The notes below the pieces were generated by a model. The model was given only the letters and a program-made list of their open reading frames with translations, was not told the DNA's origin and did no database searches. From assembly GCA_003663415.1 (NCBI GenBank), contig QMZY01000001.1:1-39320 (forward strand): 39,320 bases of DNA. The letters are read 5' to 3'. This stretch comes from Candidatus Aenigmatarchaeota archaeon. Its GTDB lineage: Archaea > Aenigmatarchaeota > Aenigmatarchaeia > QMZP01. Position numbers and translations under genes: made by a program. Below, piece by piece: positions 23,038 to 39,320 of this stretch (its first letter is position 1; every line of letters starts with the position of its first letter).

Positions 23038-24846
23038 ATGAGGATAAAGGTTATCAAAAAGGCAACAAAAAAACTGCCGAAAAAAAACGTATTAATGGTT
23101 GCTTCCATAGTAAAAAAATTAAGAAGGGGCTATATCGCCAGTAAAAAAAAACAGGAAATGGAAAAGGGCATCGGAATACCCGGACAGTTTTTTTATCAAC
23201 CAAAAATTTATACAAAATATGAAAAAATAATTTCAGAAGGAGAAAAAGAGAGCGAAAAAACAGAAAAAGCAAAAAAAATTGAAGGTGTTGAGATACCGAC
23301 AAAAATCAAACCACTTGGTTTCACGCCTGTTGTTTCTGAAGAAAAATTTGAATTGCAGAATATCCGTATCACTTATAATCTCATACCAAGGTTTCCGAAA
23401 AAAGGAGAGAAAATATTTGCTTATGCGTATATATACTGGGATAGAAATCAGAAAGAGCTTGTTTATAAGGTTATAGAGCCCAGCATAACACCTTCAGACA
23501 CAGAATTAATTGAAAACATAAAAAGAGAGCTTGAGGAAAGGCTTGATGTGGATTTTGTGAAAATAGGAGAGATAAAGGCAAAAGAGATACTCAGGCAAGA
23601 AATACAAAACATTCTTTACACCATTCAAGAAGTCCAATTTGACGATGAAAAAAAATCTGTTCTAACTTATTATATTGAGAAAGACATTTTAGGTCTGGGC
23701 AAAATTCAGCCGCTTATGGAAGACCCGAACATAGAGGATATTTCTTGTGACGGTGTTGGAATACCTGTTTATATTTATCACAGAGACCCAAGGATAGGTT
23801 CTATTAAAACAAATATAGTTTTTTCTACCAAAGATGAGCTTGATAGTTTTGTAATAAGGCTTGCACAAAAATGCAGGAAAACAATATCCATTGCAGAACC
23901 ACTGCTTGATGCCTCGCTTCCTGACGGTTCAAGGGTTCAGGCAACGCTCGGAACAGACATTGCAAGGAAAGGCTCCAATTTCACCATAAGGAAATTTACT
24001 GAACAGCCTTTAACACCAACACATATGTTAAGGTTCGGAACATTAAATTCAACGCAACTCGCATATTTATGGTTGGCCGTGGAGAACGGGCAGTCAGTGC
24101 TCATCTCAGGCGGAACAGCAACAGGTAAAACCTCTCTTTTAAATGCTCTATCGCTTTTCATTAAACCAAGTTTAAAAATAGTAAGCATAGAAGACACGCC
24201 GGAACTAAGACTTCCTCATCCTCACTGGGTTCCTGAGGTTGCGAGAAGCCCGTTATCAATAGAAGGCAGAAAAGGCGAGGTTAGTCTGTTTGATCTTTTG
24301 AAATCATCATTAAGGCAAAGACCAGATTATATAATAATGGGTGAGGTCAGGGGCAAGGAAGCTTTTGTTTTATTCCAGCAAATGGCAACAGGACACCCGT
24401 CCATCGCTACAATTCATGCAGCGTCAATATCCCAGTTAATAGACAGGCTCACAACACCACCCATCTCTTTACCCCCCACCCTGTTAGAAAACATAAACAT
24501 TATAGTTTTTCTCACGCTTGCAAGAATAAGAGAAAATTATGTCAGAAGGGCTGATAATATTTTAGAAATAGCAGGCGTGAAAGATGGAAACCCGGTTACA
24601 AACAGCGTATTTGAATGGGTTCCTGTTTCAGACAGTTTTGAAATTAAAGGAAAATCTTTGGTGTTGAAAAACATAGCAAAAAAATTAGGCGTAACAGAAG
24701 CGACAATACAGGAGGAACTGCTCAGGAGAAAGCAAATTCTTGAGTGGATGTTAGAGCAGGAAATATTTGATTATAAAGAAGTTGCAAAAATAATCACATC
24801 ATATTATTCAAATCCAGACACTGTTCTTGAATCGATTATGGAATGA
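23038..24846 (+). CDS. Type IV pilus/archaellum assembly ATPase (FlaI/ArlI-PilB-VirB11 superfamily)
   Basis: 602 aa. Walker A SGGTATGKTSLLNAL, Walker B/Asp box PDYIIMGEVRGKEA, His box ATIHA. Lys-rich N-terminal extension. Confidence 0.9.
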   Translation: MRIKVIKKATKKLPKKNVLMVASIVKKLRRGYIASKKKQEMEKGIGIPGQFFYQPKIYTKYEKIISEGEKESEKTEKAKKIEGVEIPTKIKPLGFTPVVSEEKFELQNIRITYNLIPRFPKKGEKIFAYAYIYWDRNQKELVYKVIEPSITPSDTELIENIKRELEERLDVDFVKIGEIKAKEILRQEIQNILYTIQEVQFDDEKKSVLTYYIEKDILGLGKIQPLMEDPNIEDISCDGVGIPVYIYHRDPRIGSIKTNIVFSTKDELDSFVIRLAQKCRKTISIAEPLLDASLPDGSRVQATLGTDIARKGSNFTIRKFTEQPLTPTHMLRFGTLNSTQLAYLWLAVENGQSVLISGGTATGKTSLLNALSLFIKPSLKIVSIEDTPELRLPHPHWVPEVARSPLSIEGRKGEVSLFDLLKSSLRQRPDYIIMGEVRGKEAFVLFQQMATGHPSIATIHAASISQLIDRLTTPPISLPPTLLENINIIVFLTLARIRENYVRRADNILEIAGVKDGNPVTNSVFEWVPVSDSFEIKGKSLVLKNIAKKLGVTEATIQEELLRRKQILEWMLEQEIFDYKEVAKIITSYYSNPDTVLESIME

Positions 24847-25742
24847 TTATGTTGAAAGACCTCCCTTTCAAAGGATTTGCAGTAAAACTTTTCGGGCCAA
24901 TGTTAAATCCCTATCTTGGTTATTTTGAAAACCTTAAAATTAATATGAGAAAAGCGGGCATGAAACACAGGCTTCAAGATTATTTATCAACAATAGTCTT
25001 TTACTCCTTTCTTACGTTTCTTGTAAGCCTTATTCTAACTTCTGTGTTTGTTTCCTTTTACGTGGGTTTGTATTCCAGAACCATGTCACTAACTGACGTT
25101 GTTTATTCTTACACGCTTGCAATAATCTTGTCTTTTATTTTTTCTGGTATTGTTTTCTTTATCGGATATACCTACCCAGTGTTAAAAGCAAAAACGCTAA
25201 AAATAATGATAGAGCGCTCTCTTCCATTTGCTGTATTTTATATGGCAACTTCAGCTTCTTCTGGTGTTATGCCTGTTGAAATATTTAAAATGCTCTCTGT
25301 TAGAGGCGGCGTGATAGGAAAGGAGGCGGGAAGGATTTACAGCGATGTTACGACACTCGGCATGAATTTATCTGACGCTCTTCAAAGAGCAGCTTTAAGG
25401 TCTCCGTCACCGCTTTTTTCTGATCTCTTATGGGGCATGGTTTCAACAATTACAACAGGCGGTGATATGCAGGAATATCTTTCAAGCAAAACAAGAACAT
25501 TTATGAACCATTACAGACTGGCTTTGGAAGAATATGCAAAACAAATCTCCCTTTATACTGAAATCTATATCACACTTATAATTGTTGGCAGCTTGTTTTT
25601 CATTGTTCTCATTTCTATCATAGCGCCCATGACAGGCGGAAGTGCCACGCTTTTGATACAAACATTTCTTGTGTTCTTTTTCATACCGCTTGTTTCAACA
25701 GGGTTTATATTCCTATTAAAAGCAATTTCACCAACTGAATAA
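24843..25742 (+). CDS. Type II secretion system F-domain membrane protein (FlaJ/TadB-C-like, single domain)
   Basis: 299 aa. One T2SF-type soluble domain (LPFAVFYMATSASSGVMPVEIF...GMNLSDALQRAALRSPS...LWGMVSTITTGGDM) flanked by TM helices. Overlaps the ATPase stop. Confidence 0.8.
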   Translation: MIMLKDLPFKGFAVKLFGPMLNPYLGYFENLKINMRKAGMKHRLQDYLSTIVFYSFLTFLVSLILTSVFVSFYVGLYSRTMSLTDVVYSYTLAIILSFIFSGIVFFIGYTYPVLKAKTLKIMIERSLPFAVFYMATSASSGVMPVEIFKMLSVRGGVIGKEAGRIYSDVTTLGMNLSDALQRAALRSPSPLFSDLLWGMVSTITTGGDMQEYLSSKTRTFMNHYRLALEEYAKQISLYTEIYITLIIVGSLFFIVLISIIAPMTGGSATLLIQTFLVFFFIPLVSTGFIFLLKAISPTE

Positions 25743-25744
25743 AT

Positions 25745-26677
25745 ATGGAAAACAAAACAGAAAAAAGAAAAAAAACAACGCTGCTCCCGGCTGGAGTAAG
25801 CATTTTTCTGATTATTTTAGGCCTTATTTTAGGCGATGTCGCTGTTTTGGGGAACCTTGTTATAATTTCTGTCCTCATTTCTATTATTCCGTATTTTCTT
25901 TATAAGTATTCAAAATTTATGTGGCTCAAGGGGATAGAAGAGCAGTTTCCAAACTTTGTAAGAGACCTTGCTGATTCTGCCAGATCCGGAATGTCGTTTT
26001 CAGAAGCTGTTTCAATAGCTTCAAAAGCAAATTACGGGAAGCTTAGTATTGAAGTGGAAAAAATGAAAAACAGGCTTTCCTGGGGAACGCCGTTTCTAAG
26101 GGTTTTGGATATTTTTGGAGAAAAAGTAAAGGATTCAAAAATTATTACAGAAGCCCTTAAAATAATAAAACAATCTTATGAGTCTGGCGGCAATATCGCA
26201 TCAACACTGGATGCTGTTGCAAAAGACATGCTGATGTTAAAAGAGGCTGAAACAGAAAGGCAGTCCCTTGTAAAACAACATGTTTTTATTATGTACGGCC
26301 TGTTCTTTGTATTTCTTGGCATTTCTGTAATGATAATATACGTTATGGTTCCAATGATACAGTCCCAATCATCAATCGAAGCCACGGGCGGCGGTTTGGG
26401 ATTTTCTTTCTCAAACCCCTGTCAAGGCAGTAATATGTTTCCGTGCGATTTCTTCTCAGGCATCTGCTCATTGCTTGCAATTCCTGAAGGCATAGGATGT
26501 TATTATGTTGCATTGTTTTTTTCAGTTGTAGTAATTCAGGGACTTTTCACAGGCCTTATAGCAGGACAGCTTGGCGAAAATTCTGCAATAGCGGGGACAA
26601 AGCACTCCATTATAATGGTTTTTGCTGCCATTGGCATATTTCTTTTCCTTTCAAAAACAGGATTTTTCCCAACATAG
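25745..26677 (+). CDS. Type II secretion system F-domain membrane protein (FlaJ/TadB-C-like, single domain)
   Basis: 310 aa. FPNFVRDLADSARSGMSFSEAV...IIKQSYESGGNIASTLDAVAKDM followed by TM helices. Confidence 0.8.
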   Translation: MENKTEKRKKTTLLPAGVSIFLIILGLILGDVAVLGNLVIISVLISIIPYFLYKYSKFMWLKGIEEQFPNFVRDLADSARSGMSFSEAVSIASKANYGKLSIEVEKMKNRLSWGTPFLRVLDIFGEKVKDSKIITEALKIIKQSYESGGNIASTLDAVAKDMLMLKEAETERQSLVKQHVFIMYGLFFVFLGISVMIIYVMVPMIQSQSSIEATGGGLGFSFSNPCQGSNMFPCDFFSGICSLLAIPEGIGCYYVALFFSVVVIQGLFTGLIAGQLGENSAIAGTKHSIIMVFAAIGIFLFLSKTGFFPT

Positions 26678-34222: not shown

Positions 34223-35629
34223 TTATATTAATCCAAAAAACATCGCAACCCCGAGCAAAAACATTATTATGCCCGCTATAAAGTGCAAATACCTTATATT
34301 CTTCTCTTTCCAGCCCGAAACATCTTCTACCTTAGTTATTCCAAAATAAACAACCAAGGTTATTATTATCATAGGCAGAACAAATATAAAATTATAAATT
34401 AGCAACCAAGGAAGCGTTTCAAGGATATCCAGTGCAGAAAGAATACCGCCTGCAATAACATAAGGCCCTATAGTGCAGGGAAGCAGAAAAAGGGTAACAA
34501 AAACCCCTATAACAAAAGCACCGGCAGGGCTTGTTATTTTATTAATAAGTTGTTTTACTTTTGGCCTTAATGCTACAGGCATTTCAGTAAGAAAACCACC
34601 CGGTTTATACCGCAGAAAATCCTTTATATTCAATACACCCAAAACAACAGCAAAAACCGCGAGAGCTTTGTAAAGAAAAAGCCTTACAGAAGTGAGTGTC
34701 TGGATTACCTGAAAAAACTTTATTATAACCAAACCGTACACTAAATACAAACACAAAACAGAAAATGTAAACGCGAGACCGGCGAATAAAACATTCCTTT
34801 TCTTTTTCGGATTATATGTAAGAATTGCTATTAAAATCAGAGTTAAAACAGCCAAGGCGCACGGATTAACAGAATCAACCAAAGCCAGAGATATTATTTT
34901 TCCAAGGGTTAGGGTATGTTTTGTTGGGATTTTTCCATTTTCTTTTTGCGTTTTGTTTCCAGTCAAGTTGTTTTTATTTTTCTGAACACCTTCACCATTC
35001 CACTCAAATATCCAGTTACCGATCTTTACGGCATGCTGAAATCTTATTTCGCCGCCAGATATCGGAGCAGGAACAGGATCGGTAATCTCGTATTCTGTAT
35101 CCTTAAGAACACTTGTTATGTTTTTGGTTAACAGGTCTCTTAAAATACTGTTTGAAACGTTTCCATCTCCATATTTAATCAGAATCCTTTCTTTGCTCCA
35201 TATTTTCGGCGACCCGGGAAGGGAATTAATATCAGTTTCTCCGAATGGTTTCTTTCCGTCCAAGAGCGGGCAGTCATTTGACTGAACAGAAGAAAGAGAA
35301 TTTCTTATATTCTTTAAGATAGGAGTATCGCCGATAATCCTAAAACTCTCATTAAATATTATCAGGGGTATGCCAAGGCCTGATTTGTATTTGGAGTCAT
35401 AAGACAGCATAAGGTTCGCATTTCTTTCCCTTTCCTGATATATTTCATACTCTATCAAAACAAAATCTGGATATTCATTTGGTAATTCTCCCAGAAGAAC
35501 AGGGTCTGTTTTTGCACAGTGAGGGCATCCTATACCCGTGAAATAAACCGCACATATTGTTCCCTTTGCTTGCACTGCTGGCAAAACCAAAAACAAACTC
35601 GCAAACAGCAAACACAACAGTTTTTTCAT
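34223..35629 (-). CDS. Fusion protein: secreted thioredoxin-fold domain (CPHC) plus CcdA/DsbD-type membrane domain
   Basis: Start at MKKLLCLLFASLF (signal peptide). Trx-like YFTGIGCPHCAKTDP. The C-terminal six-TM domain carries the two DsbD-family Cys motifs (VDSVNPCALAVL and FLLPCTIGPY). Confidence 0.75.
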   Translation of the reverse strand: MKKLLCLLFASLFLVLPAVQAKGTICAVYFTGIGCPHCAKTDPVLLGELPNEYPDFVLIEYEIYQERERNANLMLSYDSKYKSGLGIPLIIFNESFRIIGDTPILKNIRNSLSSVQSNDCPLLDGKKPFGETDINSLPGSPKIWSKERILIKYGDGNVSNSILRDLLTKNITSVLKDTEYEITDPVPAPISGGEIRFQHAVKIGNWIFEWNGEGVQKNKNNLTGNKTQKENGKIPTKHTLTLGKIISLALVDSVNPCALAVLTLILIAILTYNPKKKRNVLFAGLAFTFSVLCLYLVYGLVIIKFFQVIQTLTSVRLFLYKALAVFAVVLGVLNIKDFLRYKPGGFLTEMPVALRPKVKQLINKITSPAGAFVIGVFVTLFLLPCTIGPYVIAGGILSALDILETLPWLLIYNFIFVLPMIIITLVVYFGITKVEDVSGWKEKNIRYLHFIAGIIMFLLGVAMFFGLI

Positions 35630-35683: not shown

Positions 35684-35727
35684 TTGCAAAATCATCATAT
35701 TTTAATAAACCAAAACATATTAATAAT

Positions 35728-37101
35728 ATGAAAAAAATCTTGTGCTTATCGTTTGCTTTCATTTATATGTTCCTTTCCACAGTCAGCGCTGTAAGAATTG
35801 CAGACAACATCAAGTTCACTGTTTCTCCTAACAAAACCCGCTCTCTGGACATAATCCTTCCTGATGATTTTGATCTCGTACCGCAGACTACAGACTATTT
35901 CATAACCCTTTTTACAAACTGGACAGGAGTTGATTTAACAGAGCAGACAGTAACAACAAACATAAACAACACCGTGAAGATTCCAATAAACTTTCCCGGG
36001 TTCAGAAAACAAGAAGGTTACTGCTCATCCTATACAATTACCATAGAAACATCTCAGAGAGCAAGACAATGGGAAGGCAAAGTGTGCGTTTCAAAATATA
36101 ACGATGTTGACACCAGTATTGAGGAACGCACTGATTCTTTTGACATTGGTTTTTACAAAAAATACATATTTTCAAAACCCGGTGAAGAAAGGAATTTAAC
36201 ACTTTTTGTTTTGTCAAGTCTAAACACAACAATTGAATTGTTTGTAAAAGACACCGGTTTGAATATAAAACCTGTTTCTACCTCTTTCCCTGTTTTCAAA
36301 AACCGGAGAAAAACCATAAATTTTACAGTGAAACCACCAGAAAAAAGCGGAACATATCCAATAGAAGTAACAGGAAAAATAAGAAATTGTAACGAGGTCT
36401 CATGTATAAAACAGGCAACCACATATCTTAAAATAGGTAATAAACCAAACGCAAGCTTTACCGTTGACATTTTTCCAACAAACTTGGACACAAAAGCGGG
36501 CGAAAAAATAGAATACATGCTCACCATTCACAACTATGGGCCAGATGCGTTTTTTTCTGTTTATTTAAACCTTCCATCAGGAATAGAAACCACATTTTTA
36601 AACAAAATAATAGAGATTCCTCAAGCAAGCGAAAAAACCATAAACTTTACGCTGATTCCAAAAAAACCAGAAACTTTTTATGAAATAAAGGCAGGAGCCG
36701 TTTCAAAGGGAATAGACAAATACGTAACAGCGTGCATCACAACAGACGAAATGGTGACTGATTTGTTAAGAGGCATGGAAGGTATTGAAAACGGAAAAGG
36801 AAAACAGGAAATGAAAGAAAAATTTAACAAATGGTATTCTGACTATAATAAAACAGGGTATATGAATTCCTTAAAAGAATATTCTGACCTTAATGACTTA
36901 ATCCAGAAGTCAAAAACCCAAAAACCCAAAAACCAAACCAAACCAAACCAATTACCACAAAAAACAAATACACAGAAAAAGGAAACAGCAGACTATTTAT
37001 GGATAATACTGCTTGTTTCAGCGCTTGCTGGTATTTTGTTTGTTTTATTTATCGTATATAAATTCACAAGAAAGGAAGAAGATGAATGGGAATATCAGTA
37101 A
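35728..37101 (+). CDS. Secreted, C-terminally anchored surface protein (CARDB/COG1361-like repeats)
   Basis: Start at MKKILCLSFAFIYMFLSTVSA. Many N-x-S/T sequons, a Ig-like repeat signature (HNYGPDAFFSVYLNLPSGIE) and a basic/Q-rich linker (KPKNQTKPNQLPQKTNTQKKE). One TM helix and an acidic-aromatic tail EEDEWEYQ. Confidence 0.5.
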   Translation: MKKILCLSFAFIYMFLSTVSAVRIADNIKFTVSPNKTRSLDIILPDDFDLVPQTTDYFITLFTNWTGVDLTEQTVTTNINNTVKIPINFPGFRKQEGYCSSYTITIETSQRARQWEGKVCVSKYNDVDTSIEERTDSFDIGFYKKYIFSKPGEERNLTLFVLSSLNTTIELFVKDTGLNIKPVSTSFPVFKNRRKTINFTVKPPEKSGTYPIEVTGKIRNCNEVSCIKQATTYLKIGNKPNASFTVDIFPTNLDTKAGEKIEYMLTIHNYGPDAFFSVYLNLPSGIETTFLNKIIEIPQASEKTINFTLIPKKPETFYEIKAGAVSKGIDKYVTACITTDEMVTDLLRGMEGIENGKGKQEMKEKFNKWYSDYNKTGYMNSLKEYSDLNDLIQKSKTQKPKNQTKPNQLPQKTNTQKKETADYLWIILLVSALAGILFVLFIVYKFTRKEEDEWEYQ

Positions 37102-38789
37102 AAATCCTCGTCACTAAACTCTTCTTCAAGTTCTTCTTCTGTTGGTTTTTTACCTTTGAAGAATTTTGTGTATGCAAACCATCCAACAAGACCAATAACC
37201 ACCAAAACAACTATTATTATTAATGTGTAATCTCCACCTTCTGTACTCCCTGTCGTTCCTGACCACATACAGCAAACACCGACATTACCAGAACTTGTTG
37301 TGCAGGTTTTTCCAGTTGAAACCCATCCCTCTTCGCAACTCACAGCGCACACTTCGCCTGAACTACAACCAGATGAGGACTGGCATATATGGTCAGAACA
37401 AACCTCTCCAGCACTGCAATCATAATCGCTGCAGCAATCCCCTTCAACGCACACACCTGAACAGCAAATACCTTTGCTGCAGGAAGTTCCATCGCTCTTA
37501 TCTGCACATTCATTATCAGCAGAGGTTTTGCAACAAACACCATTTTCCCCGTTTATTGTGCATTTATAATAAGTGTATATAGTGTTTTCAGGGCACGCTG
37601 ACTCATTTTCTCCGGGATAGCACATCCCTTCCAAACAATTTACATCTGTTTGCGAAACACATCTGTAATTTGAGCACTTGGCATTACCGCAATCCAAATC
37701 ATTGCAGCATTCTGCTTTTATCCTGCAAACACCTGAACAGCATATCCCACCCAAACAATATTCACCGTCGCTTTTTCCTTCACAAGAAGTTGGGTCCTGA
37801 TATCCCATAACAGTAATCTTTATGTCAGCTGGTATATTCATAATAAAATCAGAGCCTGTTTTCAGTTTCAAGTCAGTTTTAATTTCCATGCTGCTTTCTA
37901 TTCCATTCAAACTAACTGTCATATATGTTGTTTCCATTGGGTCTAAAGATGTTTTCTCTAAATCAACACTCAAATACTTTTTCAGTTCATCCGGAACCTC
38001 TACCACAAGATTTGTAAAGTTCTGGTCCCCTGTGTTTTTTATCTTAAATCTTGTTATCTCGTAGTGCTGCCCTTTGTCAATTACTGCTGAGAACTCAATC
38101 CTATCAGCTGTCAGCTCACTGCTTCCCTCTTCATTAACACCCACGTTCACTTTCACAACCCCGCCGCCAAAATCATCAGTGGAGTTAGCCTTAAACGCAA
38201 TATAATAGATGTCTTCAGAAAGAGAAAGATTTGCTGTGTATCCTAATATTTCTGTTTTGTATTCCATTTCACCGTTTTTTAATAAATTCAGGTCTTTTTT
38301 ATACACCTCGTACTCGACTCCGTTTACAGGTCCGCTTGCCCATACAACAATATACACCTTATTTCCTGTTACAGTAACTTGCGGTGTTAAAACTATGCCG
38401 CCAACATTTACATTCAATGTTTTGTTTTCCATATGTCCGTTCTGATTGACAGCTTCTGTTTTCATTTCATACGGATACCCAAACGTTGGTAACGGAAAAG
38501 GAGAAGGTCCGCATGTGCTTGAAGGGTCTGTATTAGAAAAATAACAGATCCATTTATCTTTAACCTTAGGGACAAGTCCATACTGCGGCGGCATAACACC
38601 AGGAACATTCCAGGAAACCCTGATAGACTCAGATGGTGAATAATCAGCGTTCACAACCATTAAAAAACTTGAATTCACAGAAATCCGGTCAGGTATAAAA
38701 CCCAATTCCAAATTACTCAAACCATACGCTTGCGAAGGCAAAAACACGAAAAACAAACCCATCAAAATGAACAGATACTGTTTTTTCAT
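37095..38789 (-). CDS. Secreted, C-terminally anchored surface protein with tandem Cys-rich modules
   Basis: Start taken at MKKQYLFILMGLFFVFLPSQAYG. N-terminal beta-rich domains, then 32 Cys in about 170 aa (nt 37269-37784). One TM helix and an acidic-aromatic tail EEELEEEFSDEDFY. Confidence 0.55.
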   Translation of the reverse strand: MKKQYLFILMGLFFVFLPSQAYGLSNLELGFIPDRISVNSSFLMVVNADYSPSESIRVSWNVPGVMPPQYGLVPKVKDKWICYFSNTDPSSTCGPSPFPLPTFGYPYEMKTEAVNQNGHMENKTLNVNVGGIVLTPQVTVTGNKVYIVVWASGPVNGVEYEVYKKDLNLLKNGEMEYKTEILGYTANLSLSEDIYYIAFKANSTDDFGGGVVKVNVGVNEEGSSELTADRIEFSAVIDKGQHYEITRFKIKNTGDQNFTNLVVEVPDELKKYLSVDLEKTSLDPMETTYMTVSLNGIESSMEIKTDLKLKTGSDFIMNIPADIKITVMGYQDPTSCEGKSDGEYCLGGICCSGVCRIKAECCNDLDCGNAKCSNYRCVSQTDVNCLEGMCYPGENESACPENTIYTYYKCTINGENGVCCKTSADNECADKSDGTSCSKGICCSGVCVEGDCCSDYDCSAGEVCSDHICQSSSGCSSGEVCAVSCEEGWVSTGKTCTTSSGNVGVCCMWSGTTGSTEGGDYTLIIIVVLVVIGLVGWFAYTKFFKGKKPTEEELEEEFSDEDFY

Positions 38790-38911
38790 ATTATTTATTT
38801 TGTTTTGCATATTATATAAATTAGGCTTATAGGCTTTATTCTGAGCGTGTCTAATTAGATACACTCTTTAAAGGCGTAAAATATTTAAACCAAAAAATTA
38901 TTGATGGATAT

Positions 38912-39320
38912 ATGAAGGTTTTTAATAAAAAGCATTTTTTGATTTTAAGTCTGGGTTTAGTTCTAATACTTTCAGGTTTTGTGATGGTTCAGGGAGGGGA
39001 TTCTCAAGCATATCTTTTATCACCAAATGTTATTTTCATTCCAAACAACAACTATAAGGTTCTTCTTACAGTTTATGACACCGATGGAACAGAAAACATA
39101 ACCAAGGTAAACATAACATTACCGAATGGTTTTTTGTTTGTCCCAAATTCCAACTGGACATCTGCAAGCGATACAAATTTTTCAAACACATCTATTAATC
39201 CTATTAATCTAACATGGGAAAACACAACTGACAATGGTTTTATCGAATCTCAGGGGAACAACCATACATTTTCCTTTAATGTCAGCATTCCGGATTCACC
39301 TGGAAATTACAATTTTATAG
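38912..39320 (+). CDS. Secreted protein, 5' partial (runs off the window end)
   Basis: ATG at 38912. MKVFNKKHFLILSLGLVLILSGFVMVQG signal/anchor, followed by an N-x-S/T-rich sequence. The frame is open to 39320. Not in the ORF track because no stop is reached. Confidence 0.45.
   Translation, partial: MKVFNKKHFLILSLGLVLILSGFVMVQGGDSQAYLLSPNVIFIPNNNYKVLLTVYDTDGTENITKVNITLPNGFLFVPNSNWTSASDTNFSNTSINPINLTWENTTDNGFIESQGNNHTFSFNVSIPDSPGNYNFI

Follow-up and report, generated by a model that had tools for sequence, protein, structure and literature searches.

What fold, and what role, should be ascribed to a segment of an archaeal surface protein that is packed with cysteine? The question arises near the end of the window, which is the whole 39,320-nucleotide stretch of contig QMZY01000001.1 (Candidatus Aenigmatarchaeota archaeon, assembly GCA_003663415.1) that was analyzed. 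On the minus strand, 37269-37784 encodes residues 336-507 of one gene product; 32 of these 172 amino acids are Cys (18.6%), compared with 2 Cys in the remaining 392 residues of the protein and a Cys content of 1.1% in 31 other long open reading frames of the window (binomial P ~2e-29 for the enrichment). The first-pass annotation had described 32 Cys in about 170 residues, a tandem A-B-A-B layout, and an archaeal anchored surface protein. These descriptions stand: the recount agrees, the four module sequences that it quoted match letter for letter in the order A1-B1-A2-B2, and the origin in Aenigmatarchaeota (DPANN), the extracytoplasmic stalk, and the membrane anchor all hold. A1 and A2 are 54% identical and B1 and B2 are 42% identical, and a six-frame scan found neither module pattern elsewhere in the window. 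The interpretation favored here, held at somewhat better than an even chance, is that 37269-37784 encodes the membrane-proximal stalk of an Aenigmatarchaeota type I surface protein, composed of DPY-type doublets and B mini-domains and serving as a compact rigid spacer.

The product of the stalk gene (Table 1) is identical to database protein P0001, and its AlphaFold2 model has a mean pLDDT of 84.9. At the N-terminus, MKKQYLFILMGLFFVFLPSQAYG looks like a Sec-type signal peptide. The Ig-like region that follows contains a conserved Cys82-Cys93 pair, and the corresponding part of homologues matches the CARDB, HYDIN/VesB-like Ig, and ASH families of Pfam. A Foldseek search with the full-length model matched tandem Ig, FN3, and macroglobulin domains with E-values down to 5e-8; as these matches are generic tandems only, they are uninformative on the stalk. 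After a single transmembrane helix come KFFKGKK and an acidic tail, an arrangement that agrees with the positive-inside rule and would place the stalk outside the cell. The tail ends in [DE][DE]FY in 34 of 36 homologues with a Cys stalk. Judged by these sequence features, the protein is a type I membrane-anchored surface protein with a predicted extracellular stalk.

Table 1. Features of the stalk gene and its neighbors, in positions of the window
Feature	Position	Strand	Basis or description
Whole gene, stalk protein	37095..38789	minus	Open reading frame and translation; ATG start, 564 aa, stop codon 37095-37097
Signal peptide, aa 1-23 (MKKQYLFILMGLFFVFLPSQAYG)	38721..38789	minus	Read from sequence; helix 2-15 in AlphaFold2 model
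Three Ig-like beta-sandwich domains, ~aa 27-130, 134-216, 226-328	37806..38711	minus	AlphaFold2 strands, pLDDT mostly >90
Module A1, aa 336-377	37659..37784	minus	10 Cys, two predicted beta-hairpins
Module B1, aa 385-420	37530..37637	minus	6 Cys, predicted three-stranded antiparallel sheet
Module A2, aa 428-469	37383..37508	minus	10 Cys; weak Pfam matches to DUF7107 (E 0.15) and hevein (E 0.17)
Module B2, aa 475-507	37269..37367	minus	6 Cys, predicted three-stranded sheet
Transmembrane helix, aa 522-544 (TLIIIVVLVVIGLVGWFAY)	37158..37226	minus	Hydrophobic stretch; AlphaFold2 helix 522-544; KFFKGKK next
Predicted cytoplasmic tail	37098..37157	minus	Basic then acidic, end ...EEEFSDEDFY-COOH
Convergent partner gene, 458 aa	35725..37101	plus	Signal peptide, Ig-like region, helical membrane-proximal part, transmembrane helix, acidic tail
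CPHC fusion gene	34223..35629	minus	Signal peptide, thioredoxin-like CPHC domain, and CcdA/DsbD-type membrane domain in one protein

Module A follows the spacing C-x8-C-x4-CC-x3-C-x4/5-CC-x4-C-x4/5-C-x4-C, which had been correctly given in the first-pass annotation and is strongly conserved in homologues: 98 distinct A modules of relatives follow it. Across 76 modules its Cys are invariant, apart from two that are kept in at least 90%. The second half (C6, C8, C9, C10) has the spacing C-x5-C-x5-C-x4-C and a D-x-D-C-x2-G signature in essentially all modules. The first half is spaced x8-x4-x4, with an x8 first loop in 94 of the 98 modules; the other four, all from homologues, have an x5 first loop and show DPY spacing in this half as well. 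Cys4 and Cys7 are both present in 91 modules, both absent from 7, and never found singly (Fisher p 7e-11, with modules counted without correction for phylogeny), and the losses fall at A positions 1, 2, and 3 in different proteins. Because the two residues are kept or lost jointly, a bond between them is implied, which is incompatible with the C1-C4 bond of a cystine knot. This co-variation points to a C4-C7 disulfide in module A.

Searches with the stalk as a whole returned little. A Pfam scan of the entire protein and of the isolated 172-residue region gave no family at E-values up to 1, a phmmer search of the region against PDB sequences gave no match, and Foldseek with a model of A1-B1 gave no match at E <=0.001 in the PDB or a viral library. 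Pithovirus and cedratvirus membrane proteins rich in Cys headed the viral matches, at E-values of at least 0.086.

A profile of module A was more informative. Against PDB sequences it matched CREMP (9pgb, E 1e-4), in four stretches centered on C-x-D-x-x-C-x-x-G-x-x-C, and the DPY module of Dumpy (1oig, E 0.007). Against 1.84 billion representative proteins it gave 172 matches, consisting of its own family and of multi-repeat proteins; 128 of the 139 matches examined were multi-repeat, with a median of seven DPY-spaced units, and Pfam DUF7107, Dickkopf_N, or DUF4215 was found in all eight multi-repeat proteins sampled. When A modules were scanned singly, 7 of 76 matched Dumpy_DPY (best E 3.9e-5) and 5 of 76 matched DUF7107, while an 8-Cys variant in an A position matched DUF7107 end to end (positions 2-42 of 48) at 23.4 bits against a cut-off of 24.6. 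Cys-rich profiles are liable to composition-driven matches, and the A modules of the window lie below the Pfam gathering thresholds: A1 had no match, and A2 reached DUF7107 at 12.8 bits against the required 24.6. These searches lead to a Cys-rich repeat family whose fold differs from the knot, at the level of remote homology only.

AlphaFold2 (pLDDT ~85) predicts two hairpins for each A module and a three-stranded sheet for each B module. The predicted strands of A1 (348-351/354-357 and 371-373/376-378, pLDDT ~80-90) form a loop over a small hairpin. Comparison by hhalign of the first half of A with the second, and of each half with B, gave probabilities below 2%, with profiles that are too short to inform. 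The reading of module A that best suits its Cys pattern and profile matches is a pair of DPY-like hairpin units, each with two disulfides, stapled by one more; such a pair would have arisen by internal duplication.

Module B has the framework C-C-C-C-CC, with all six Cys invariant across B modules. The strands predicted for B1 span residues 389-392, 403-412, and 415-422, which are 57-60, 71-80, and 83-90 in the A1-B1 model. In the Foldseek PDB search with this model, the alpha-defensin HNP4 ranked first (TM 0.68, target-normalized; rmsd 2.0 A; 34 columns; E 2.6; probability 0.44) and APETx1 ranked second. Sub-threshold Pfam matches to Defensin_1 (8/37), Defensin_beta (6/37), and Defensin_beta_2 (3/37) occur in homologue B modules and in no A modules; the best is a Defensin_1 match of 17.1 bits against a cut-off of 21.4. 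B1 and B2 of the window match none of the Pfam defensin families, and a B profile searched against PDB sequences at E-values up to 10 found no defensin, only weak matches to LDL-receptor-A modules and lipoproteins. The PDB sequence and Foldseek searches together yielded no significant relative of module B by sequence or fold. With its flanks, the B profile retrieved nothing at E <=1 from a database of 5.8 billion proteins, its own family members included, and that search is powerless on B distribution. As modeled, module B is a six-Cys three-stranded beta-sheet mini-domain whose likeness to defensins is sub-threshold.

The stalk-protein family comprises 44 homologues, with 16 reference genomes represented, and every named member is from Aenigmatarchaeota. 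By its sequences the family is lineage-specific to this phylum. The named relatives were sampled from sediment, groundwater, and hot springs, habitats that are probably anoxic. A search of the literature on cysteine-rich surface proteins of Aenigmarchaeota/DPANN and on DUF7107 found no description of the family. Its stalks are of AAA, ABA, or ABAB type, the first of these without any B module, and eight relatives have, in place of the Cys stalk, a helical segment and an additional domain rich in beta structure. Among orthologues at one syntenic position, both the order and the number of modules differ. Such variability, together with outright stalk replacement, favors a spacer over a specific ligand. 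Of 42 complete family members, 41 have an even total of stalk Cys, which is what full pairing would produce.

The partner gene converges on the stalk gene and overlaps it by 7 bases at its 3′ end. Its product carries conserved Cys of its own and matches the convergent neighbor at two other loci by BLASTP (E 2e-45 and 3e-73). Starting from an alignment of 10 family sequences, 21 related loci were found and flanks of 6-10 kb were compared at each. A partner lies directly downstream of the stalk gene in 16 of the 21 (tblastn), and in three of the remaining five the gene lies near a contig end. Stalk relatives that lack the Cys modules also retain the partner gene.

The second neighbor, the CPHC fusion gene, had been proposed to match the stalk's need for extracytoplasmic oxidative folding. 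The fusion does exist nearby; its linkage to the stalk gene is not conserved, as tblastn found no CPHC fusion within the flanks of any of the 21 related loci. A functional link based on gene neighborhood was rejected on these grounds, and the rhomboid protease, ABC ATPase, and CARDB genes of the window also show no conserved linkage to the stalk gene at related loci. The fusion matches Pfam DsbD_2 (E 8e-6) and has more than 1346 homologues; the top 120 are 54-64% identical, and the identical protein is named as Aenigmatarchaeota. CPHC is kept in 109 of these 120, with no variation at the Cys of the membrane motifs NPC and LPC. The fusion family is far larger and more conserved than the stalk-protein family. 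CcdA/DsbD-type membrane domains export reducing power, so the fusion suits isomerization or reduction better than de novo oxidation, and the window shows no dedicated oxidase of the DsbA/DsbB or VKOR type. This widespread CPHC-CcdA/DsbD fusion is a candidate isomerase for the stalk disulfides.

Taken together, the stalk may be pictured as a string of four small disulfide-locked modules between the Ig-like domains and the transmembrane helix. Each A module would be a doublet of DPY/DUF7107-type units, and each unit would be a loop and a short beta-hairpin with two disulfides. If bonded as DPY and CREMP are, the first unit would pair C1-C3 and C2-C5, the second C6-C9 and C8-C10, and C4-C7 would be a fifth, family-specific disulfide stapling one unit to the other. 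The string would serve as a compact, rigid spacer, resistant to proteases and denaturation, that keeps the Ig-like head off the membrane, and the conserved tail and the convergent partner protein may tie the stalk protein into a surface complex. A rigid stalk is the role, among those listed in the first-pass annotation, that the evidence favors.

The same annotation had seen the A modules as inhibitor cystine knots, of knottin or conotoxin type, which might act as toxin- or ligand-like elements for host interaction. The first six A Cys do fit the C-C-CC-C-C framework and CCSGxC stretches occur, but four further conserved Cys follow. Two x5-loop variants among homologues weakly match Conotoxin_I2 (E 0.017 and 0.078; 14-16 bits against 27), and the A-profile search of the PDB lists the spider knottin SGTx1 at E 0.31; however, all significant matches are two-disulfide hairpin modules, and no knottin or conotoxin is present among 21 Foldseek PDB matches. 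A knot is contradicted by the strict co-occurrence of Cys4 and Cys7 and by a predicted secondary structure of two separate hairpins, and it is highly improbable. The window modules match no toxin family, toxin Pfam matches in homologues are isolated and far below cut-offs (E at least 0.017), and the shuffling of modules and their replacement in orthologues speak against a specific ligand role. A toxin-like function of the stalk is not supported. A related possibility is that the modules are binding or effector domains, for example a defensin-like, membrane-active, or host-envelope-binding B, through which the stalk attaches to or attacks a host. As a rule, DPANN archaea live as symbionts and rely on surface contact. 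Module B has the six-Cys framework and the predicted three-stranded sheet of trans-defensins (PMC7203481), HNP4 and APETx1 head its structural matches, and the sub-threshold defensin matches of homologues fall in B modules and not in A modules. Nevertheless, every one of these matches is below its curated cut-off, the B modules of the window have none, and no PDB sequence recovered with the B profile is a defensin. The B modules are also neutral to acidic rather than cationic, adjoin the membrane beneath three Ig-like domains, and are entirely missing from AAA-type orthologues, which makes an effector role unlikely. It is similarly doubtful that B has a genuine trans-defensin fold with beta-defensin-like pairing and that A and B form a previously undescribed stalk in the main surface or host-contact complex with the partner.

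Two further alternatives concern the chemistry of the Cys residues. They could be unbonded, either coordinating a metal (Zn or Fe) or kept reduced, as in the surface protein of an anaerobe. The metagenomic sources of the relatives (sediment, groundwater, and hot springs) accord with this, as does the window, which encodes no obvious disulfide oxidase and whose only nearby thiol-redox protein is of the CcdA/DsbD type that sends reducing power outward. Unbonded Cys are nonetheless quite unlikely, given that Cys are lost pairwise, that stalk totals are nearly always even, and that the conserved His or CxxC pairs typical of metal sites are missing. Moreover, the A modules are homologous to DPY and CREMP, whose disulfides are experimentally determined, and the confident AlphaFold2 hairpins put Cys on strands as in those proteins. 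Alternatively, intermolecular disulfides could cross-link copies of the stalk protein, or the stalk protein and a partner, into a covalent surface lattice. The closest characterized module types, Dumpy DPY and CREMP, sit in load-bearing extracellular matrix proteins, and the conserved partner surface protein offers conserved Cys. Such a lattice is also improbable, since Cys counts are even and losses come in pairs, as fully intramodular pairing would predict, CREMP bonds lie within modules, and Cys-less relatives retain the same partner gene.

The envelopes of DPANN archaea are almost uncharacterized, and a conserved two-gene surface unit specific to Aenigmatarchaeota is now defined, one protein of which would stand on a modular stalk with 13 to 16 disulfides. 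If the spacer interpretation holds, archaea too use two-disulfide hairpins of the DPY/DUF7107 kind, in a stapled-doublet form; the modules of this type that have names so far come from animal matrix proteins and from bacterial repeats without annotation. It would also raise the question of how an organism with a small genome and a largely anoxic habitat forms and proofreads so many extracytoplasmic disulfides. The stalk-swapped orthologues (AAA, ABA, ABAB, and no Cys stalk) constitute a natural experiment on the role of the stalk. Were module B to have a trans-defensin fold, it would be the first prokaryotic case of a fold described as exclusive to animals.

Among known systems, the inhibitor cystine knots and conotoxin framework VI/VII share C-C-CC-C-C with the first six Cys of module A, along with CCSGxC-like stretches. 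In a cystine knot C1 pairs with C4, C2 with C5, and C3 with C6, the last of these bonds passing through the ring. Module A differs from these peptides in having ten Cys rather than six and a probable C4-C7 bond in place of C1-C4, and it is embedded in a stalk instead of being a free secreted peptide. Hevein, or chitin-binding type 1 (PF00187), shares C-x8-C-x4-CC-S with the start of A. Residues 1-17 of A2 match positions 2-18 of the hevein profile at 12.6 bits against 27.8 (E 0.17), and hevein-type matches occur in 2 of 76 A modules, none of them over the whole 8-Cys domain. The aromatic residues with which hevein binds chitin are not conserved in module A. The trans-defensins (alpha-, beta-, and big defensins) resemble module B in having six Cys of which the last two are adjacent, a G-x-C that precedes the fourth Cys, and a three-stranded antiparallel sheet, which is predicted in B. 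Alpha- and beta-defensins are cationic secreted peptides whose Cys pair 1-5/2-4/3-6 or 1-6/2-4/3-5. Unlike them, B is a domain inside a membrane protein, is not cationic, and has only sub-threshold scores. Trans-defensins are described as restricted to animals (PMC7203481).

Of the PDB sequences, the A profile best matches the CREMP modules of an avian eggshell membrane protein (PDB 9PGB). Each is a loop-plus-hairpin unit with two disulfides (1-3, 2-4), both within the module, and a row of them makes up an extended structural protein; DPY structures likewise show the loop-plus-hairpin fold, 1-3/2-4 bonds, and extended strings in structural matrix proteins (PMC12723725). CREMP differs from module A in its C-x4-C-x5-C-x8-C spacing, lacks CC pairs and an inter-unit staple, and is part of an animal matrix fiber protein. 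Module A also resembles the DPY module of Drosophila Dumpy (PDB 1OIG, PF21164) and the repeats, bacterial and other, that are classed as DUF7107 (PF23416) or Dickkopf_N-like (PF04706), which have the same C-x5-C-x5-C-x4-C spacing and D-x-D-C-x2-G signature as its second half and give profile matches with it in both directions. DPY/DUF7107 and A also share a predicted loop-plus-hairpin shape and a tandem arrangement in extracellular proteins. Module A is distinguished from DPY/DUF7107 by its fixed doublet form, by two extra Cys (in the CC pairs) that would form the C4-C7 staple, and by a first unit with an x8 loop and a G-G-I-C-C core, and in the window it falls below Pfam thresholds. Its host is an archaeal membrane-anchored protein with two or three A modules rather than a protein carrying tens of repeats.

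The stalk protein is the 564-residue product of the minus-strand open reading frame (ORF) 37095..38789. Its stalk (residues 336-507, window positions 37269-37784) contains 32 cysteines in 172 residues, while the remainder of the protein has two. Cysteine averages 1.1% in 31 other long ORFs of the window, and the excess in the stalk has a binomial P of about 2e-29. The stalk comprises four modules in the order A1-B1-A2-B2, with ten cysteines (C1 to C10) in A and six in B; all four match letter for letter the sequences quoted in the first-pass annotation, whose Cys-rich A-B-A-B stretch is thus confirmed. Identity is 54% between A1 and A2 and 42% between B1 and B2, and a six-frame translation scan found neither cysteine pattern elsewhere in the window.

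Features of the stalk protein and its neighbourhood
Feature	Position	Strand	Description
Module A1	residues 336-377	-	ten cysteines
Module B1	residues 385-420	-	six cysteines
Module A2	residues 428-469	-	ten cysteines
Module B2	residues 475-507	-	six cysteines
Divergent ORF	38912-39320	+	runs past the window end; signal-peptide protein rich in N-x-S/T sequons (MKVFNKKHFLILSLGLVLILSG...)
Partner gene	35725-37101	+	signal peptide, Ig-like region with conserved Cys pairs, helical membrane-proximal segment, TM helix, acidic tail
CPHC protein	34223-35629	-	signal peptide, thioredoxin-like CPHC domain, CcdA/DsbD-type membrane domain
ABC ATPase	33505-34200	-	
CARDB-domain protein	32364-33515	-	
Rhomboid protease	31756-32367	-	
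RimK-like ATP-grasp protein, MscS-like channel, pentapeptide-repeat protein	within 23038-33515		
Type IV pilus-like ATPase and two T2SSF genes	23038-26677	+	ATPase is T2SSE with PilB3_C

The N-terminus of the stalk protein (MKKQYLFILMGLFFVFLPSQAYG) reads as a Sec signal peptide. The AlphaFold2 model, built from an alignment of 44 homologues (mean pLDDT 84.9), contains three beta-sandwich domains (approximately 27-130, 134-216, and 226-328), the Cys-rich modules at pLDDT 71-90, and a single long helix at 522-544. This helix is followed by KFFKGKK and an acidic tail, which places the stalk outside the cell and next to the membrane. Foldseek matches to the full-length model are limited to generic tandem Ig, FN3, and macroglobulin domains; a Pfam scan of the window protein found no family, and its homologues match CARDB, HYDIN/VesB-like Ig, and ASH. 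The cytoplasmic tail (37098-37157, minus strand) ends in a conserved acidic ...[DE][DE]F[SED][DE]E[DE]FY-COOH. Terminal [DE][DE]FY is present in 34 of the 36 Cys-stalk homologues, whereas in most Cys-less relatives the terminus is ...EEI, ...EEV, or some other hydrophobic residue. The tail motif suggests a docking site for a putative cytoplasmic partner. Upstream, an A/T-rich TATA-like stretch (TTTATATAA; 38790-38830, minus strand), noted by eye, lies about 20-30 bases from the ATG at 38789 and would be compatible with an archaeal promoter whose leader is very short.

The stalk protein belongs to a family of unannotated proteins, with 44 relatives found in a search of 5.8 billion proteins. Every organism-named relative is from Aenigmarchaeota/Aenigmatarchaeota, and the 16 loci found in a scan of one genome per GTDB species are labelled Aenigmatarchaeota or 'uncultured archaeon'. 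A database protein assigned to Candidatus Aenigmatarchaeota is identical to the oxidoreductase that neighbours the stalk gene in the window. Cysteine spacing is conserved among homologues: in the 36 relatives with a Cys stalk, module A keeps a nearly fixed C-x8-C-x4-CC-x3-C-x2..7-CC-x4-C-x4..5-C-x4..5-C, nine of its ten cysteines are invariant (76 modules), and all six B cysteines are invariant. Module order varies, with ABA in most relatives, AAA in about nine, and ABAB in the window protein and a few close relatives. Eight relatives (P0037-P0044) lack the Cys stalk, and an extra beta-rich domain and a helical segment precede their TM helix instead.

Module A had been described as cystine-knot-like, a reading that its cysteine co-variation, profile matches, and models do not support. 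C4 and C7, the second cysteine of each CC pair, are the sole variable cysteines and vary together: of 98 distinct A modules, 91 have both, seven have neither, and none has one alone (Fisher p 7e-11, without phylogenetic correction). The losses affect different proteins and fall at the first, second, and third A positions. The simplest reading of this pattern is a C4-C7 disulfide, which is incompatible with the C1-C4 bond of a knot. Against PDB sequences, the A profile matches CREMP (9pgb, E 1e-4) and Dumpy DPY (1oig, E 0.007), and in each case the matching part is its second half. When 1.84 billion representative proteins were scanned exhaustively with HMMER, 172 matches reached E <=1e-3. Among them the strict ten-cysteine pattern is confined to family members (11 of 139 non-query matches); the remaining 128 are multi-repeat proteins built from C-x5-C-x4..6-C-x3..5-C units (median seven), and all eight sampled contain Pfam DUF7107, Dickkopf_N, or DUF4215. 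Among 76 single A modules, Dumpy_DPY is matched by seven (best 3.9e-5), DUF7107 by five, and Dickkopf_N by four, while toxin families appear once each at E >2.

One family member has, in an A position, an eight-Cys variant that aligns with DUF7107 from end to end, scoring 23.4 bits where the cut-off is 24.6, and four homologue A modules have an x5 first loop, which gives DPY spacing in the first half too. Both window A modules fall below every Pfam threshold: A1 has no match, and A2 reaches E 0.15 with DUF7107 and, over 17 residues, E 0.17 with hevein. Comparisons of the half-modules by hhalign gave probabilities below 2%, on profiles short enough to carry little information. Each A module is modelled as two separate hairpins. 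DPY (C-x5-C-x5-C-x4-C) and CREMP have a loop-plus-hairpin shape with disulfides 1-3 and 2-4 (PMC12723725), and the predicted two-hairpin form of module A has the same shape. Foldseek gave 21 PDB matches for the A1-B1 model, and no knottin is among them. Three independent lines (co-variation, profile matches, and predicted structure) therefore argue for module A as a ten-Cys stapled doublet of DPY/DUF7107-like two-disulfide hairpin units; disulfides other than C4-C7 are inferred by analogy.

Five distant matches (P0045, P0049, P0056, P0065, and P0067) are proteins of 1300-2150 residues in which the unit C-x2-D-x-D-C-x2-G-x2-C-x4-C recurs dozens of times, with a maximum of 51 in P0045. The sequences of P0045 and P0049 were read, and in both the units are interspersed with a second repeated domain of about 130 residues. 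These proteins illustrate the wide use of the DUF7107-type unit outside archaea.

Module B has the framework C-x4..5-C-x3..8-C-x9..10-C-x4..9-CC and the conserved motif ...SCPxGxxxTGxC...G(I/V)CC. Its predicted structure is an antiparallel sheet of three strands: strand 1 carries Cys2, strand 2 carries Cys4, and strand 3 carries the CC pair. Trans-defensins have three antiparallel strands and six cysteines (PMC7203481), the layout predicted for B. The best two Foldseek PDB matches to the A1-B1 model are alpha-defensin HNP4 (TM 0.68 on target, rmsd 2.0 A, E 2.6) and APETx1. Homologue B modules match Defensin_1 (8/37), Defensin_beta (6/37), and Defensin_beta_2 (3/37) below threshold, the best of them scoring 17.1 bits where the cut-off is 21.4. 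The A modules, just as rich in cysteine, match none of these families. Window B1 and B2 have no defensin match in Pfam, the B profile finds no defensin among PDB sequences, and B modules, unlike defensins, are not cationic. The evidence for a defensin relationship is weak, if consistent, and B is treated as resembling trans-defensins in framework and predicted topology, not in family membership; a true trans-defensin fold in an archaeon is unlikely.

The CPHC protein is a thioredoxin-like and CcdA/DsbD fusion encoded by a 491-residue ORF that probably starts at an internal Met (MKKLLCLLF...), giving the signal peptide. Among its best 120 relatives (54-64% identity) of more than 1346 matches, 109 keep the CPHC motif, and the NPC and LPC membrane cysteines are invariant. 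The protein proposed earlier as a match to stalk folding is real; the neighbourhood link did not hold. Its gene is absent from the 6-10 kb of flank fetched at all 21 other stalk loci, and its family exceeds the stalk family by far in both size and conservation. CcdA/DsbD proteins pass electrons outward. If the CPHC protein serves the stalk at all, it would act in trans, and isomerisation or reduction would be a more plausible task for it than primary oxidation.

The partner gene is convergent with the stalk gene, and their 3' ends overlap by 7 bases. Convergent neighbours at other loci are its homologues (E 2e-45 and 3e-73), and tblastn places it directly downstream of the stalk gene at 16 of the 21 related loci, Cys-less forms included, making the pair the conserved unit; in three of the five loci without a match, the stalk gene is close to a contig end. 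In other Aenigmatarchaeota (loci L001-L004, L008, L010, and others), CTP synthase, ERCC4 nuclease, and tRNA-binding protein genes flank the pair upstream, and unannotated proteins of about 1250-1400 residues (L001-L004) and about 611 residues (L003, L004) lie downstream. The window lacks the CTP synthase/ERCC4 neighbourhood, so the pair has moved in this genome. The adjacent sequon-rich signal-peptide protein places the stalk gene within a surface-protein gene cluster, and further envelope-related genes lie nearby in 23038-33515. The rhomboid, CARDB, and ABC genes, searched for at the other loci, are not linked to the stalk gene.

In the favoured model, the stalk strings together small disulfide-locked modules that each fold independently, and would serve as a compact, rigid, degradation-resistant spacer from the membrane to the Ig-like head. 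Module identity is better supported than function, and a structural spacer is the most likely role, held with slightly better than even confidence. It is favoured because the stalk adjoins the membrane, because orthologues with a common head, tail, partner, and synteny differ in how many modules they have and in what order, and because an unrelated domain and helical segment can replace it. The toxin-like reading is not supported, and a knottin-type toxin or ligand is highly improbable. Specific adhesion or a defensin-like activity has a low probability. Slightly less probable still are metal-binding or reduced cysteines and, on a par with them, intermolecular cross-links.

The stalk offers a tangible entry point to the envelope of Aenigmatarchaeota, and it poses the question of how disulfides are made outside the cytoplasm in this lineage. 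In the literature library searched, no paper describes the stalk-protein family or DUF7107. The stalk is a new form of an already known type of module: a stapled DPY/DUF7107-like doublet, joined to a six-Cys module that is unclassified, in a surface protein specific to one archaeal lineage. Its closest characterised modules, DPY and CREMP, occur in extended, load-bearing extracellular proteins, which also favours a spacer.
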